From: a virus
Lineage: Duplodnaviria; Caudoviricetes
Strand: one strand, 5' to 3'
IMG/VR virus record: IMGVR_UViG_3300031669_000026
Coordinates: 1 to 59,964 of that record
DNA length: 59,964 nucleotides
A model generated the notes under the pieces. The model saw nothing but the letters and a program-made list of their open reading frames with translations, did no database searches and was not told the origin of the DNA. Below are positions 3,069 to 34,579 of the stretch, in pieces. Both the position numbers and the translations under genes were made by a program. The first letter of the stretch is position 1. Each line of letters starts with the position of its first letter.

Positions 3069-6000
3069 TGGCAACAAAGATTTGGACAACCAAAGAAGAT
3101 TTTGATAGTGGCAGTTTAAACAATGTAGTAGATCATCGTAATAATGATTTACAATTGGTTTACGCCTGGAGTTTTGGGGGAGATCTAAACGAAGCTAAAT
3201 ATAGTATGGCAGGGGCTGGAACACAAACTGCAGGTCTTTGTTTTGGTGGCGATAAAGATGGTAATGACGCACTTATAACAACAGAAGAATATGTTGGATC
3301 ATTATGGGCATGTGCTGGAGATTTAAATACTGGTCGGCGTAATTTGTCTGGTTGTGGTACTCAAACAGCGGCGCTCAGTATTGGCGGACGTACTACTATA
3401 GATGAAGTTATCACAGAAGAATATGATGGAACATCATGGGCATGTGCTGGAGATCTAAATGTAGCCAGATTTTGGATGGGCGGGGTTGGAACACTAACCG
3501 CTGGAATTTGTTTTGGTGGAAGAAATGGTGTTCCCACAAACTTTGATAGTACAGAAGAATATAATGGAACATCATGGTGTTCGGGGAATGGTTTAAGTGT
3601 AATAAAATTTGGTGTGGGTGGAGCAGGAACACAAACAGCAGCGCTTTGTTTTGGTGGTAGAAATATTGCTAGTTATGCTACAACAGAATATTACAATGGT
3701 ACTTCTTGGAGTTTAGATAGTGATTTAAATAAGGCTAGAGATAGGTTGGGAGGAACAGGAACACAGTCAGTGGCTTTGAGCTTTGGTGGTTATGACGGTG
3801 TTACTTATTTAGCAAATACAGAAGAATATAATGGTTCTATATGGACAGTAGCTTCAAGTTTGAATGTGTTAAGGTATCTTTCAATGGGAGCTGGAACTCA
3901 AGAAGCATTATGTGCGGGTGGTTCCGCCGCAGTAGGTTTTAGATTAGAAAGTACAGAAGAATATTGCCCAGTAGCATCAGGAACATGGACAGTAGATTTT
4001 GATAGTGGTTATAATCTTTCAGTTTGGGGAAGTACAAAATGGGATGATTTATCATGGTTAAATGCTGGCGGAGGTAGTTGCAAGGCCAGAGTGAAGTCTG
4101 CTACTACTCAAGGCGGTTTAGTTGGTGCCACTTGGTATCCTACTGGCGGAAGTGGTTATTATGAAACACAACCAGTAGATGTGGAGTGTCCGGACAATAG
4201 ATGGTATAGATTAGAAGTAACTTTAATAGAAGGTAGTACCCCACAAATAGAGCAAGTGGGTCAAGATTACAGTCCTCCCTTGCCAACAATTATTGGAAAT
4301 GCAAATATTCAAACTTATATATTTTATACAATAGGGGCAAATGGAAGAATTCAACCTGTTATAACTGCAAACAGTGAGATTAGTTTAAATGTTCCATTGT
4401 ATGCAAATGGAAGAATTCAACCAATAATAAATGCAGATGGGAGAATAAGTCCTGTTATATCAGCAAATGGAGAAATTGTTGGAAATGTTCCATTGTATGC
4501 TGTTGCAAGAATTCAACCATGTATAAACGCTGATGGAAGAATAAGATCTGTATTACCCGCTGTTGGAAGAATTCAACCTATTATAAGTGGAGACGGTAGA
4601 ATATGTCCCATAATAATTGCCAATGGAAGAATTCTTTATATGATTACAGCTAGTGGTAGAATAAGTCCGATCATTACAGCGACAGCAGTAATTTTTCCAA
4701 GCATAAGAGCTAGTGGAAGAATTCAACCTACTATAAGTTCTAATGCTGAGATTTGTTTGAATGTTCCATTGTACGCCGTAGCAAGAATTCAACCTGTTAT
4801 AACTGGCAATGGAAGAATTCAACTTATAACAACAGCTAGTGCAAGAATTGCACCATCTATAGGTGGTAATGCAGAAATTGCTTTAAATGTTTCATTGTAT
4901 GCAAATGGCAGGATAAGACTTCCAAATTATTCAAGTTATACTATTAATGCACTTGGAAGAATTATTGCAGAAAGACGAACAAAATTATTTATAAGCTCTG
5001 ATGTAAAAGAAAATATTTTATTATATCAACGATATCAAGATTTAAGAGGTTTGGTAGTAGATGAGAATTTTTATACTAGGGATGGATATGTAGTTCCTCG
5101 CAAGAGAGGAAGAACTAATTTAGGAAAATATTTGTTTGCATTACAGAGTCCGTTTTTCGCACAAACAGTATGGTCAGTGAATTTAAACAGTTCTTATCAA
5201 TTTGATATTTTAACTGATGCAGTTGGAATAGCTCCTTTTAGAATGGCATTAGCAAGAGGAGAGAATAGAATTGATGTAACTCGTAAAGAAACTAAAGTAG
5301 AATTGTTAGAAATACATCCTACAACCAGAACAAACATTACTCCTTTTGCAAAAACAGCAAGTATGATACAGAAAGAAACTTTTGTGATAAAGGATGTGAG
5401 TGGACAAAAAACAAGATTATTGGATAGTGAATATTCGTTTGTTAATACTAGTTATATTAAAATTGTAAGTTCTGCATACGATGCGTCTGCTATATATACA
5501 ATTTATTATGTGGTAATAAATCCAGGAGAATCTGAACCAGAAAAAAGAACGTATACTTCGTGGGTGAGAAGTTTAAATTATGTAACATGGTTTGGAGCGT
5601 ATTCTGAAGAATTAATGTCAATAGACGATTCTTCTGATGAAACTAAAGATGATACTTATTTGAAAACTGCTACACATCAGAGTTTGATAGATAATTTTGG
5701 AGCAACTTTAGCACGTACAGAACCTGATTCAAAATGGACAGTAGATGGTTATCGGGAGATTTTAGAAGAGTATTATCATTCATATTTAAGATCTTCAACA
5801 ACTCAAAAAGGTGTTAAAGATGGAATTGGAAATATAGTAACAATTCCTCCTAAATTGGAAAGTTATCAAAATTACAAAAAATGGATTTTGGGATGGCAAT
5901 GGCTTCCTACTAGGGAATTAAATGTTAATCCTATATCAGGATTTCCTGATGGATGGGTAATTAGTGGAGGAACATGTGAGGATTCAAATAATAAACTTTT

Positions 6001-30460: not shown

Positions 30461-30967
30461 ATGAAAATGTTTTATGTAGTTGATAAATATAGAATATTGG
30501 CTGAATCTGAAATACCAGTTCAAATGAAAGATTATCCTGACTGTGAATTGATTGAAGGACCTCCAGGAGTATCCATGATAAATTTTGAAGTTTGTATGGA
30601 AAAGGGGATTAAGAAAATTAAAACTAAACAAATAACAAATGCTTTTGATATTGATGTATCAATTCCAGGAATGGAAAAAACTGATGGTGCGTATAAAATA
30701 AAAATTGGTGGAGAACCAATTGAAATAGAAATAAAAATAAGCGGTGTTCCTTATATTCCACCCCTTTTTAAATTTCCTGAAAATTTTGATCCTGATAAAA
30801 ATAATATAAACATAGACTGCACTAGAGGAAAATTAAGTACAAATGTTCTTGAAAAGTCTGGAATTATAGAATGGACTCCAGTTGATGAAACAGTAGAATG
30901 TTCTATTATTGTAACAGCATTAAACTTTCCTCCAATTCAGAAATTTATAACAATAAAATTGATTTAA
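30461..30967 (+). CDS. Putative fibre accessory/chaperone protein
   Basis: Last gene of the fibre cluster; beta-rich; AGGAGG RBS. Confidence 0.4.
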   Translation: MKMFYVVDKYRILAESEIPVQMKDYPDCELIEGPPGVSMINFEVCMEKGIKKIKTKQITNAFDIDVSIPGMEKTDGAYKIKIGGEPIEIEIKISGVPYIPPLFKFPENFDPDKNNINIDCTRGKLSTNVLEKSGIIEWTPVDETVECSIIVTALNFPPIQKFITIKLI

Positions 30968-30978
30968 TGAATAAAAAT

Positions 30979-30988
30979 GTGTATAATA
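30979..30988 (+). promoter_or_regulatory. GTGTATAATA putative promoter for the coiled-coil gene/ncRNA unit
   Basis: Same 10-mer as at 6936 and 48835, just upstream of the GGAGGTG RBS. Confidence 0.5.
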
Positions 30989-31005
30989 TACAGTAGGAGG
31001 TGATT

Positions 31006-31329
31006 ATGGCCAAGGGAAACCAGTTGGGGATTTGGAAAATAGAAAAGAAGACAATAAATGAATTATTAGTTTGTATGTCGATTGTTCGTAAAAGAATTAA
31101 TGATTTAAGCGAAATTCGGAAAGAAGTTAGTAAAAGAGAAAGAAGATTCTTTGGTAATGAAGAAACAGGTGTAGTAGAGCCACAATATGATGTAAAAGAA
31201 GTTGATAAAAAGATTACAGATTTGCAGAATTTTTTGTACGAAGCAGATTCGAAAATAAAACAATCAAATGCCAAAACTAAAATAGATATTGAAGCAGATG
31301 TGAAAGTGTTATTGGAACCAATTAAATAA
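31006..31329 (+). CDS. Small coiled-coil protein resembling the DIP1984/DUF6847-like family
   Basis: Pattern TINELL..RKRINDL..VEPQYDVKEVDKKI..L...IKQSNAKTKI (helix, linker, helix ending I..SN..T.I); RBS gives ATG 31006. Family call is from memory only. Confidence 0.55.
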   Translation: MAKGNQLGIWKIEKKTINELLVCMSIVRKRINDLSEIRKEVSKRERRFFGNEETGVVEPQYDVKEVDKKITDLQNFLYEADSKIKQSNAKTKIDIEADVKVLLEPIK

Positions 31330-31350
31330 AGGTTAAATTTGAGAAGTGCT

Positions 31351-31542
31351 TAGTTAATGCAGAATAGTTCATATTTTATGGATGAAAAAGCTGAAAACAG
31401 TCATATCTGACTGTTACTTTTGGACAGAGATCTCGCCTGTTGTGGATAAAATTTATATAATTTGTTATTTTTTGTTAATATCCTGAGAAAAAGGCGAAGA
31501 CATTGTTAATTGTTGATCTTTTCAGCCTTTCTGTATTAACTA
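31351..31542 (+). ncRNA. Putative structured ncRNA (~190 nt, six nested stems)
   Basis: 14-bp closing stem 31351-64/31529-42 with one GU; 8-bp 31390-97/31519-26; 8-bp hairpin 31396-415; TCGCCT/AGGCGA 31433-38/31492-97; GGATA/TATCC 31444-48/31479-83; hairpin 31368-82. Confidence 0.7.
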
Positions 31543-31577
31543 TTTTTATGCGCAAAAAATAATTTTAAAGAAAAGAC

Positions 31578-31605
31578 TTGACATTTTTTAAATTGGTGTT
31601 ATAAT
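31578..31605 (+). promoter_or_regulatory. Sigma70-type early promoter P1
   Basis: TTGACA-N16-TATAAT preceded by AAAAGAC. Confidence 0.8.
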
Positions 31606-31630
31606 GTTATTATTAAAAGGAGTTTTTTAA

Positions 31631-32071
31631 ATGGGCGGAATAAAACTAGGCATGCCAGTAGGCATGATGTCAATTATAAAAATTCGCAACATGGCGGAGG
31701 AAATGCGAAAGGAAGCAAAGGGAAAGGATTTAATAGATTTCGCATCTTCCAAATTTTTGCAAAAAGATTATTATGAAATTCATTTGGAAAAATTTGTGTC
31801 GAGACGAAAAGAAGGTGCATACGAGTTTGCTTGTTCGTATGAGTGGATGCCATCTGGAACAATTATGGAGCATTTTTCTGTAGGACATAAAGGACGAGTT
31901 CTATTGCCTAATGAAGCCCAATTGTTGGCGATTTTGTTAGGCATAAGAGATAATCGAAAAGCTATACAATCGAAGCGAGGAATTTGTCATTGGTTTCAGC
32001 CAGTGAATTTTAAAAAGAGAGATAAAATCCCTCAAATTGGTTTTACAGTTTTGGAAACTGTTGATAATTAA
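31631..32071 (+). CDS. Hypothetical protein
   Basis: AGGAG RBS, directly downstream of P1. Confidence 0.6.
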   Translation: MGGIKLGMPVGMMSIIKIRNMAEEMRKEAKGKDLIDFASSKFLQKDYYEIHLEKFVSRRKEGAYEFACSYEWMPSGTIMEHFSVGHKGRVLLPNEAQLLAILLGIRDNRKAIQSKRGICHWFQPVNFKKRDKIPQIGFTVLETVDN

Positions 32072-32161: not shown

Positions 32162-33127
32162 ATGCTTAATGTAAAAATGCCAGGATTGACTACCGAGTTA
32201 GAAAAAGAAAAGGATTTTAAGATAATAACAATAACAAATGTTGAAGAGATTTTTGACAGAGGTTTTACAAAAGAAGGCATTGCGGCTATTGGCAATAGTT
32301 GTGGCATTCCAGCAGGATATTTGAAAAAGTTGTATAAATCAGATAAAGATTTGTTCAATGCTACTATAAAACATTGGATGGGAGTTGAGGATGTTTTGGC
32401 TAAAAGAAGTGTAGCCGTTAAAAATGAACAAGTAGCTGGTTTGTGCAAACAAGACAAAATTTTAATTCCTACTGGTAACATGCTTGAAAAAGTTTCAGAT
32501 ATCTTTGATATGAAGGGATGGGATGGTGATTTGGTGAAAGGAGCAATCCATCCTAATGATTCTTTTTTAAGTATTGTATTTAATGATATTCAGAAAAACG
32601 CGGCGGAGGGTGCAGAAAAAGGAGATTTGTTAAACGCTGGTTTTTCTATTGTTCATTCAATGCTTGGAGATTTTAAAGATAGAATAGCATCGTATGTTCA
32701 TCGTCTTGTTTGTACGAATGGAATGATAGTTGATGATGAGCAACACTCTTGGGATATAAGTGATGATACTTTTCCAGATACGGCAGAAGATTATATTTGT
32801 CAAGCCAAGGACATTGGAAAGGAACTCATGGATAGATTTATTTCTAAGAAACATATTCTAGTAACAAATCCAGTTTCTGCCATTACTTCAATGGCAAAAC
32901 AAATGGGGATTGGTTCAAAAGATGTTAATTTGCTTTTACAGGAAATTGGAAGGCAACCTCTTGAAAATATGTATGATGTGTCAAATCTTTTAACATTTTA
33001 TGCTTCACATCAATCAGACGATCCGTATGAAGTGAGAAAACTTCAAACTCGCATCGGGAATTTAATAAATGTAGATGTTTGTGATTGTTGCCATTCAGTA
33101 ATCAAAACCATTAACAAAAATATTTAA
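32162..33127 (+). CDS. DUF932/DUF945-like protein
   Basis: HRLVCTNGMI signature. Confidence 0.7.
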   Translation: MLNVKMPGLTTELEKEKDFKIITITNVEEIFDRGFTKEGIAAIGNSCGIPAGYLKKLYKSDKDLFNATIKHWMGVEDVLAKRSVAVKNEQVAGLCKQDKILIPTGNMLEKVSDIFDMKGWDGDLVKGAIHPNDSFLSIVFNDIQKNAAEGAEKGDLLNAGFSIVHSMLGDFKDRIASYVHRLVCTNGMIVDDEQHSWDISDDTFPDTAEDYICQAKDIGKELMDRFISKKHILVTNPVSAITSMAKQMGIGSKDVNLLLQEIGRQPLENMYDVSNLLTFYASHQSDDPYEVRKLQTRIGNLINVDVCDCCHSVIKTINKNI

Positions 33128-33665: not shown

Positions 33666-34049
33666 ATGAAGGATATTAAGGATATTACTAAATGGGGAAA
33701 AGACCACTGGAGTCTTCTTGTTTATGTGGAGACATGTTGTGTTGACACAATTGGAAGGTTAGATAGAATAAGATTGAGTTGTAATGAAGAGAGACATCCA
33801 TTATTAAAAGGTGAGATGAATCCAAAATGGGATCCCAAATATTGTACGAGAATGAAAGAAGGAGTTATTGATGGGCATGATGATTGGGACTGCCTTGAGG
33901 AGTTGGAGGAAGTTGGATTTATTGAAATAATGAGTATGATAAACGGGTATGTTAAAATTACAATACAAGGTAAAAAGATAGCTGCACAATTAAGAAGCCA
34001 TAAAGCAGACGGCGGAAATTTTGCAAATTTTGTTCCTATCAAAAATTGA
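33666..34049 (+). CDS. Hypothetical phage protein
   Basis: WGKDHWSLL.Y.E..HDDWDCL motifs; AAGGAG RBS. Confidence 0.6.
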   Translation: MKDIKDITKWGKDHWSLLVYVETCCVDTIGRLDRIRLSCNEERHPLLKGEMNPKWDPKYCTRMKEGVIDGHDDWDCLEELEEVGFIEIMSMINGYVKITIQGKKIAAQLRSHKADGGNFANFVPIKN

Positions 34050-34063
34050 TGGAGGGAAAAATA

Positions 34064-34579
34064 ATGAAGAAGTTTATTATTTTGTTTTGTTTATTGATAA
34101 TGCCTTCTTTTCTTGCATCTCCTGGATTGACGAATGATATTGAAAAGGATATTAATAATTTTATTAAGAAAGAAAGAAAAGAATTAATTAAATATGTTTG
34201 TGGAGATTATAAAGAAGAGATAGTTTCAGCCATTATCAAGCATGTTCCTCGGGAAGAATGTTTGCATGGAGAAATTAATCTGAGAAAATTATTAATAATT
34301 ATGGCAAATAAGGAGAGTTCTGGAAATCCAAAAGCGATTAGTAAAAAAGGCGCTGTAGGTGTTTGGCAGATAATGCCGAATGAAGCAGAAAATTATGGTT
34401 ACGCAGCTTCTGATATGCTTTTAATAGAAAAGAATTTAATTGTTGCTAAAAAAGTTCTTTATCGAAAGGCTCGTTTGGTTAAAAATCCTTGGAATGCTGT
34501 GAAATATTATAATGGCAGTGGATCATGTGCGCATAATTACAAGATTAGTATTAAAAAGGCTTACTATAAAATTATTTAA
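34064..34579 (+). CDS. SLT-family lytic transglycosylase with N-terminal signal/anchor
   Basis: KESSGNPKAIS.KGAVGVWQIMP..YNG motifs; MKKFIILFCLLI N-terminus. Confidence 0.85.
   Translation: MKKFIILFCLLIMPSFLASPGLTNDIEKDINNFIKKERKELIKYVCGDYKEEIVSAIIKHVPREECLHGEINLRKLLIIMANKESSGNPKAISKKGAVGVWQIMPNEAENYGYAASDMLLIEKNLIVAKKVLYRKARLVKNPWNAVKYYNGSGSCAHNYKISIKKAYYKII

Follow-up and report, generated by a model that had tools for sequence, protein, structure and literature searches.

A small gene and a structured RNA at one locus

We analyzed a stretch of 59,964 base pairs (bp) that comprises the virus record IMGVR_UViG_3300031669_000026 (Caudoviricetes; estimated completeness about 30%) and that we refer to as the window. 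The subject of this work is a compact module in the window, a small gene followed directly by a structured RNA, that together take up about 520 nucleotides (nt). An initial annotation had marked this locus as a two-part unit. All of the elements that it named (a TATAAT element, a ribosome-binding site, an open reading frame (ORF) of 107 amino acids (aa), a 14-bp pairing of the ends of the RNA, nested stems between those ends, and the promoter of the next genes) were found where it had placed them. The features described below are on the + strand unless indicated otherwise.

The gene is preceded by a promoter-like site, TTGATT-17-TATAAT (30959..30987; TATAAT element at 30982-30987), that matches the consensus at 10 of 12 positions, and this sequence match is what suggests activity. 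A Shine-Dalgarno-like sequence, AGGAGGTG (30994..31001), can be read from the DNA and ends 4 nt before the ATG at 31006. The gene itself (31006..31329) encodes the 107-aa protein, a two-helix hairpin and homodimer in structural predictions and apparently a distant relative of the family DUF6847/DIP1984.

The RNA was delimited with family models that we built from related loci (see below). The final model, R3, matched the window from 31345 to 31549 (41.9 bits, E 2.3e-4) and the preceding model, R2, matched from 31346 to 31548 with E 0.66. The RNA is closed by a stem, P1, in which the 5' arm TAGTTAATGCAGAA (31351..31364) forms 14 bp, one of them G·U, with the 3' arm TTCTGTATTAACTA (31529..31542). 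All 12 of the P1 pairs in the model are formed. P1 is followed by an unpaired UAG (31365..31367) that is conserved in the family consensus and alignments, by the hairpin P2 (31368..31382; TTCATA at 31368-73 paired with TATGGA at 31377-82), which has 4/4 modelled pairs and covaries across the family, and by a conserved GA(A)A stretch (31384..31389; GAnA in the family consensus). The next helix, P3, pairs GCTGAAAA (31390..31397) with TTTTCAGC (31519..31526). P3 is supported in part of the family only: when cognate and non-cognate arms were compared, the cognate pair came first in 9/45 loci and within the top three in 14/45, and the window ranked 2nd of 45.

An extra hairpin, AACAGTCA-tatc-TGACTGTT (31396..31415; 31396-31403 with 31408-31415), falls in insert columns and lies outside the family model. 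P4 pairs TCGCCT (31433..31438) with AGGCGA (31492..31497) and has 4/4 modelled pairs. It encloses P5 (31444..31483; GGATA at 31444-48 with TATCC at 31479-83), which has 5/8 modelled pairs and a large loop with TTGTTA at 31462 and 31472. The single-stranded linker that follows P4 (31498..31518) contains TTGTTA (31503) and TTGTTG (31510), and the five T's that come after P1 (31543..31547) likely mark the 3' end of the transcript. The predicted fold of the + strand has an energy of -52.2 kcal/mol (z -2.9), which was equaled by none of 200 shuffled sequences.

The RNA and its position after the gene are conserved

We found that the RNA recurs downstream of homologues of the small gene. There were 81 related loci, here designated L with a number, on 16 viral contigs, 64 metagenome contigs and 1 contig from a metagenome-assembled genome. 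At least 250 nt were available past the stop codon in 73 of the 81, and these gave 61 distinct downstream regions. In a test of the closing stem, the first 45 nt past the stop codon paired best with their own distal region, rather than with any of 15 non-cognate ones, in 31/60 loci; about 4 were expected by chance.

Family models were then built in three rounds. A seed of five sequences showed P1, P2, P4 and P5. Compensatory changes were present at 19 of its 38 predicted pairs, and the model from it (R1) gave 20 matches in 69 sources. Two helices that had been predicted in the UUGUU linker were removed because each varied on one side only. R2, from a seed of 12 sequences, gave 38 matches at E<=1 in the 69 sources, and 37 of these were on the + strand directly after the gene. 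R3 was made from 26 sequences, with the window and its close relative L018 left out of the seed. It gave 53 matches at E<=1, of which 49 were on the + strand directly after a homologous gene (38 of the 49 at E<=0.01). The remaining four were weak and were elsewhere or on the - strand. That is, the linkage of gene and RNA that had been proposed for the window is conserved in 49/69 sources. Six of the 20 sources lacking such a match have fewer than 200 nt after the gene, and therefore the rate is 49/63 where the RNA could be seen.

Several of the sources that were negative with R3 do carry a UUGUU-rich region closed by a stem. In L004, L009, L025, L028, L035, L041 and L051, none of which was matched by the family models, a UUGUU-rich region with a long closing stem lies in the first ~200 nt past the gene, and thus the RNA may exist there in a second structural form.

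The predicted helices covary, as had been anticipated for the downstream regions of homologues. In an alignment of 53 rows, 87.7% of the cells at paired positions were standard pairs, compared with 41.6-48.6% when the partners were slid by 1-3 columns, and all 28 modelled pairs had changes on both sides that preserved pairing. The covariation score was 0.793 compared with 0.224 in shuffled alignments, and none of 500 shuffles reached 0.793. In addition, G·U or U·G occupied 86 cells and A·C or C·A occupied 25. This excess is that of an RNA made from the + strand and not of a DNA palindrome, as had been argued from the G·U pairs in the window.

The family consensus consists, in order, of P1 (with purines mostly in the 5' arm), UAG, P2, GAnA, a variable region, P4 (GGnU.. 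/ ..nCC), P5, whose large loop has an A-rich part followed by UUGUUGU, the linker UUgUUnUUaaUUGUUgu, the 3' arm of P1 and a U-run. The purine-rich 5' arm of P1 is probably a residue of compensation driven by transitions.

The RNA appears to fall outside the known RNA families, as had been suspected. A search of the whole window with Rfam 15 gave no match at the gathering score, and in five loci searched with Rfam 15 at E<=1 the only matches were to tRNA genes elsewhere. There was no match by blastn between positions 30979-31600 and 50,697 GenBank phage records, and no description of the RNA turned up in the literature searched (titles and the openings of abstracts). We consider both the existence of this RNA family and its association with the gene to be well supported and very likely correct.

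Two other matches deserve mention. A family model weakly matched the window at 34041-34127 (E 0.5-0.7), at the junction of two ORFs, but only 87 nt were covered for a model of 197 positions; this match is most likely due to chance. Separately, one copy of the module, with a protein that is 58% identical, is on L082, a 12-kb contig binned as a Methanosarcinales archaeon. The RNA of L082 scored 101.5 bits with R3, a model that has L082 itself in its seed. L082 may be a phage contig that was placed in the wrong bin; otherwise, it hints at the range of hosts.

We also evaluated the pattern TTGTTGTT-gap-TTGTT-gap-TTGTT as a means of finding copies of the RNA that lack the gene. The pattern was found in 14/60 of our own loci and in no background sequence. 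It occurred in at least 120 stretches of viral contigs, and none of the 120 listed encoded the protein. R2, run on 80 of the 120, gave a single overlapping match (L099, E 0.033) that lies inside a minus-strand gene. The pattern was rejected as non-specific.

A repeated, strand-specific motif

The motif UUGUUR is conserved and is characteristic of the RNA strand. The initial annotation had listed six (C/T)TGTT(A/G) sites, mostly in loops or linkers. YTGTTR occurs on the + strand of the RNA in the window at exactly 31411, 31437, 31462, 31472, 31503 and 31510, so that all six sites are present; about five rather than six are in loops or linkers because the motif at 31411 sits inside the stem of a hairpin. 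Among the 61 distinct downstream regions, the density of TTGTT was 14.3 per kb in the first 260 nt after the gene, compared with 2.0 per kb elsewhere in the loci, an enrichment of approximately seven-fold that was limited to one strand. The complement, AACAA, was not enriched (2.0 per kb downstream of the gene compared with 3.1 per kb in the rest of the loci). The extended form of the motif is U-UGUU-R, and successive copies are most often spaced by 3, 7 or 10 nt.

The loci L014-L016 form a subgroup in which AUUGUA/UUAUU repeats (about 4308-4500) replace UUGUU. Therefore, the repeated motif may co-vary with the lineage of the protein.

Two possible uses of the motif were considered and given up. 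Pairing of the RNA with AACAA sequences in its own coding region was dropped, as AACAA occurs there at 4.3 per kb compared with a background of 3.1 per kb. Inspection also led us to reject UUGUUA as a mimic of an anticodon loop because the motifs occupy a large loop and a linker and not loops of 7 nt.

The small protein

The protein had been described as DIP1984-like, and we found the likeness to be distant. The window protein scored 24.9 bits (E 1.8e-5) with the DIP1984 family (NCBIfam NF038048), which is below the curated cut-off of 70, and it aligned to positions 69-147 of 149 only. With DUF6847 (PF20935) it scored 23.9 bits, below the gathering cut-off of 27, over positions 63-139 of 141 only (21.8 bits in a six-frame search). 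DUF6847 was matched at E<=0.1 by 22 of 35 family members (best E 8.2e-6), and one homologue, P0016, has a precomputed hit to PF20935. The resemblance is thus weak and is to the C-terminal half of the family profile. Proteins of DUF6847/DIP1984 have ~141-149 aa and those described here, of which the window protein is viral, have about 92-107 aa, so only half of the profile is covered. Based on these comparisons of sequence, the small protein is best regarded as a distant, sub-threshold relative. DUF6847/DIP1984 itself is without known function, so the likeness explains nothing about mechanism. In the literature searched, neither DIP1984 nor DUF6847 was mentioned; the term 'septicolysin' alone turned up.

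Homologues are numerous. The first search gave 34 proteins of 65-99 aa. A profile search of 1.84 billion representatives gave 274 at E<=1e-3 and 174 at E<=1e-10, and among the 150 representatives listed the lengths were mostly 90-100 aa. The nearest clusters in the ESM Atlas are viral. A scan of viral contigs with the single protein found no relative, whereas a scan based on an alignment did find relatives. By tblastn, neither the window protein nor P0021 or P0036 had a match in the 50,697 GenBank phage records.

The initial annotation had also called the protein an oligomeric coiled coil. In the AlphaFold2 model of the monomer, the long helices H17-43 and H63-86 form a hairpin, with short strands at the two ends of the chain. 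The protein is predicted to be a homodimer: the model of the dimer passed its controls, with a score of 0.42 compared with 0.13 for the best control. In a calibration on solved structures, that mark was reached by 20/30 proteins solved as pairs and by 1/23 solved as single chains, counts that hold only roughly because our own alignment was used. Agreement of contacts between the dimer runs was at least 92%, with a predicted local distance difference test (pLDDT) score of at least 75 for the partner. The modelled interface is made by the conserved N-terminal strand and a conserved SNA-T segment. A conserved stretch at the tip of the hairpin, EPQYDVKxVDKK, is mostly outside the modelled interface and may be the site that contacts a ligand.

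A search of the Atlas structures had a DUF6847 cluster among the matches listed (template-modelling score, TM, 0.64). Foldseek searches of PDB and BFVD found nothing at E<=0.001; a protein of unknown function from C. diphtheriae (3kdq_C) was at rank 9, with a probability of 0.80, TMq 0.57 and a root-mean-square deviation of 3.5 over 79 columns, but with a non-significant E of 1.7. A search of PDB with the sequence profile of the family gave only a chance coiled-coil match (E 0.12).

Genomic context and the transcript

The long ORFs in the window are all on the + strand, and the G+C content is 28-37%. On one side of the module is a block of tail-fibre-like genes, and on the other is a promoter that matches the consensus perfectly, TTGACA-16-TATAAT (31578..31605; 12/12 matches, upstream TG present); it is outside the unit and bounds it. 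This promoter opens a block of small genes right after the RNA and may mark the boundary between late structural genes and another expression class. Two genes downstream of the module, a 321-aa ORF (32162-33127) matches phrog_1362, a family of unknown function.

In other loci the neighbors differ. Clustering of flanking ORFs at E 1e-5 linked close relatives only. When ten flanking ORFs were scanned for known families, the matches were to a 5'-3' exonuclease, PD-(D/E)XK nucleases, a DNA methylase, a gp44-like clamp loader, an epimerase, DUF932, a tail tube protein and a gp32-like protein; one of the ten had no match. In L003, a DUF932-like gene (3156-4001) is immediately upstream of the module. 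Because the neighbors are not conserved, only the gene and the RNA travel together. The sources of the module are large uncultured phages in metagenomes from soil, sediment and water, and the seven sequencing runs that were looked up are all DNA metagenomes.

A tRNA scan found no tRNA gene in the window. In some phages, tRNA genes are a few hundred to about a thousand bases from the module; they were present in 9/48 loci scanned (for example, L013 3668-3740, L056 1141-1215, L061 2185-2259 and L062 4147-4222). With 9/48 loci and none in the window, a linkage to tRNA genes as a rule was dropped.

The description of the module as self-contained applies to the window, where the gene has its own promoter-like site. 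It does not apply to the whole family, because in several related loci the gene that precedes the small gene ends within it. At its other end, the gene is close to the RNA. P1 starts 0-22 nt past the stop codon in 36/49 loci. In five loci, the 5' arm of P1 (and P2) is about 40 nt inside the end of the gene (L002 4245-4288; L024 790-833; L027 3226-3273; L029 2872-2919; L032 3236-3279). There, the codons are constrained both by the protein and by the structure of the RNA, and terminating ribosomes must unfold the RNA. The distance from the first to the last base of P1 has a median of 187 nt (range 145-240; 49 loci), and at least four T's are found within the 10 nt after P1 in 34/49 loci. The gap between the gene and the RNA is too short to hold a promoter, which leads us to infer that the RNA makes up the 3' portion of the transcript of the gene itself.

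A possible RNA-protein particle

We propose that these loci encode a new family of phage RNAs that comes from the 3' end of the transcript of the small gene, and that a particle of this RNA with the dimeric protein is probable; we estimate the probability that the two products form a particle at about 0.5. The conserved linkage, the covarying fold, the strand of the RNA and the enrichment of the motif are supported directly by the comparisons above. A particle is the simplest way to account for a linkage that is exclusive and mobile and for a closing stem that abuts the stop codon.

The particle might form as follows. The small gene would be transcribed together with the ~200 nt downstream of it. 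These would fold into P1, UAG, P2, GAAA, a variable P3, P4, P5 and the linker, with a U-run after P1. The large loop of P5 would present an A-rich stretch and then UUGUUGUU, and the single-stranded linker would present two to four further UUGUUR motifs. The 3' part would persist as a stable non-coding RNA. The dimeric hairpin protein would bind this RNA and so form a ribonucleoprotein (RNP) particle, with the repeated UUGUUR motifs as the most likely sites of contact. Because the 5' arm of P1 lies shortly after the stop codon or, in five loci, within the gene, the particle could assemble on the protein's own transcript. It might act as a regulator or a decoy during takeover of the host.

There are precedents for a structured RNA gene beside the gene for its protein partner, including the Ro/Y RNA and OLE RNPs. 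The ends of Y RNA also form a long closing stem, similar to P1. The proteins of those systems (TROVE; OapA/B/C) are unrelated to the protein described here, the RNAs differ in size and motifs, and the RNA described here has no match in Rfam.

Several points weigh against a particle or weaken the data on which it is based. The loci were all found through the protein, and any orphan copies of the RNA would be beyond the reach of such a sample. Of the 63 sources with 200 nt or more past the gene, 14 gave no match to R3. Fitting to the model was part of how the alignments for the covariation counts were made, and this biases the counts in its favor. A search of whole records with R3 did not report the RNA of the window at E<=0.1, although direct use of cmsearch reports it, and the same search, which missed that copy, found no second copy of the RNA in four records. 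The confidence of the monomer model is moderate (mean pLDDT 66.6). In addition, searches of Pfam, NCBIfam and PHROG found no known RNA-binding domain in the protein, and the family is not basic (isoelectric points of 5.1-9.0 across 35 members).

A more specific form of the particle, which would be a new class of phage RNP, is offered tentatively. A Rop-like dimer would sit on a scaffold RNA that is cut from the 3' end of its own mRNA, and the UUGUUR array in the P1-closed fold would enable the particle to act in trans during infection. Such an RNP could titrate a host RNA-binding factor or ribonuclease or, in large phages without RegA, it could serve as a global regulator similar to RegA. Rop (Rom) of ColE1 is also a helix-hairpin protein of fewer than 110 aa that dimerizes into a helical bundle and recognizes folded RNA. 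In contrast to the candidate ligand here, a repeated linear motif, Rop binds the kissing loops of two RNAs. Neither a profile search of PDB nor Foldseek matched the protein to Rop.

Alternative functions of the module

The main rival is that the RNA alone is a multi-site decoy, or sponge, in which the UUGUUR array binds a host factor or another phage factor (a single-stranded RNA-binding protein, a translational repressor or an endoribonuclease) and the protein is only transcribed along with it or assists by another route. We regard this as possible but doubtful. The motifs are short, repeated and strand-specific, they are in a loop and a linker, and the protein is not basic, all of which would suit a sponge. 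CsrB is a sponge RNA with such an arrangement of motifs. Like the RNA described here, CsrB and RsmZ repeat a short single-stranded motif many times in their loops and linkers, and their partner, CsrA, is a small dimeric protein, as the candidate partner here is predicted to be. They differ in several respects: the motif is GGA there and UUGUUR here, with no repeated GGA in our family consensus, and those RNAs are a string of hairpins whereas this one is a single P1-closed fold whose candidate partner is a helical hairpin encoded directly upstream.

RegA of phage T4 provides a further lead, and nothing beyond a lead, for a sponge. RegA, a translational repressor, is a small phage homodimer that binds unstructured A/U-rich RNA (PMC3014915), and a ligand from systematic evolution of ligands by exponential enrichment (SELEX), aaAAUUGUUAUGUAA, contains UUGUUA. 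The window protein has no match to PF01818, however, and the operators of RegA are over ribosome-binding sites whereas the motifs here are in a structured 3' RNA. A search of five records for the RegA family gave no signal anywhere, controls included, and was uninformative. Two findings argue against a sponge that works without the protein. Gene starts in the window show no enrichment of TTGTT (4 observed, 7.2 expected), and the tight, exclusive linkage of the RNA to one gene amid changing neighbors argues for a direct partnership.

It is also conceivable, though unlikely, that the element acts purely in cis as an elaborate 3' untranslated region that ends and stabilizes the mRNA, or that it couples translation to folding for autoregulation, and that it has no role in trans. 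The U-run after P1 (at least four T's in the next 10 nt in 34/49 loci), the lack of space for a separate promoter, and a closing stem that begins at or inside the end of the gene, so that terminating ribosomes must melt it, all fit such a function. On the other hand, an element of ~190 nt with four helices that covary and several unpaired motifs that are invariant goes far beyond what a terminator or stabilizer needs, and a terminator scan called no intrinsic terminator at the RNA.

A type III toxin-antitoxin-like pair, in which the protein would be a toxin restrained by the repeated-motif RNA, had been one suggestion of the initial annotation, and we now find it very improbable. There is a general similarity to ToxIN, in which a protein gene is beside an RNA of repeated elements on mobile elements and phages, and the module is likewise a mobile, phage-borne unit with varying neighbors and a gene that adjoins a repeated-motif RNA. 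The antitoxin RNA of ToxIN is made of tandem repeats of 34-36 nt, and there is no such array here (Tandem Repeats Finder reported 0 rows for 30900-31700). The antitoxin gene is upstream of the toxin gene, with a terminator between them; in the window and in all 49 model matches the RNA is downstream of the gene. The toxin is an endoribonuclease of the ToxN/AbiQ type, whereas the protein here is modelled as a helical hairpin and not as a nuclease fold, and searches of Pfam, NCBIfam, PHROG and, for seven proteins scanned, the PADLOC defence families gave no ToxN/AbiQ-like or defence-family match.

Finally, it is highly improbable that the inverted repeats act as DNA (for example, as an origin, packaging or recombination site) and that the RNA fold is incidental. 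The - strand, too, is more stable than shuffled versions of itself (-40.9 kcal/mol, z -3.3), and R3 has weak minus-strand matches over the same region in L003 and L058, but the + strand is 11 kcal/mol more stable, G·U cells far outnumber A·C cells, the motif is strand-specific, and the element is always just 3' of a gene on the same strand with a U-run after it.

Significance

To our knowledge, only a small number of the structured non-coding RNAs found in phages are understood, and phage-encoded RNA-protein particles are even less common. The module described here is widespread in large uncultured phages and moves as a unit between differing genome contexts, a mobility that is often typical of accessory genes for host takeover or counter-defence. 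The RNA family is ready for deposit, as there is a seed alignment along with conserved motifs and four helices that covary. The module supplies a concrete candidate ligand for the phage branch of DUF6847/DIP1984. Because it is small and easily synthesized, it is also a system in which to learn how a repeated linear RNA motif might be read by a dimer of helical hairpins. Should the RNA turn out to be a decoy for a host factor, it would add an RNA-based mechanism to the conflict between phages and their hosts.

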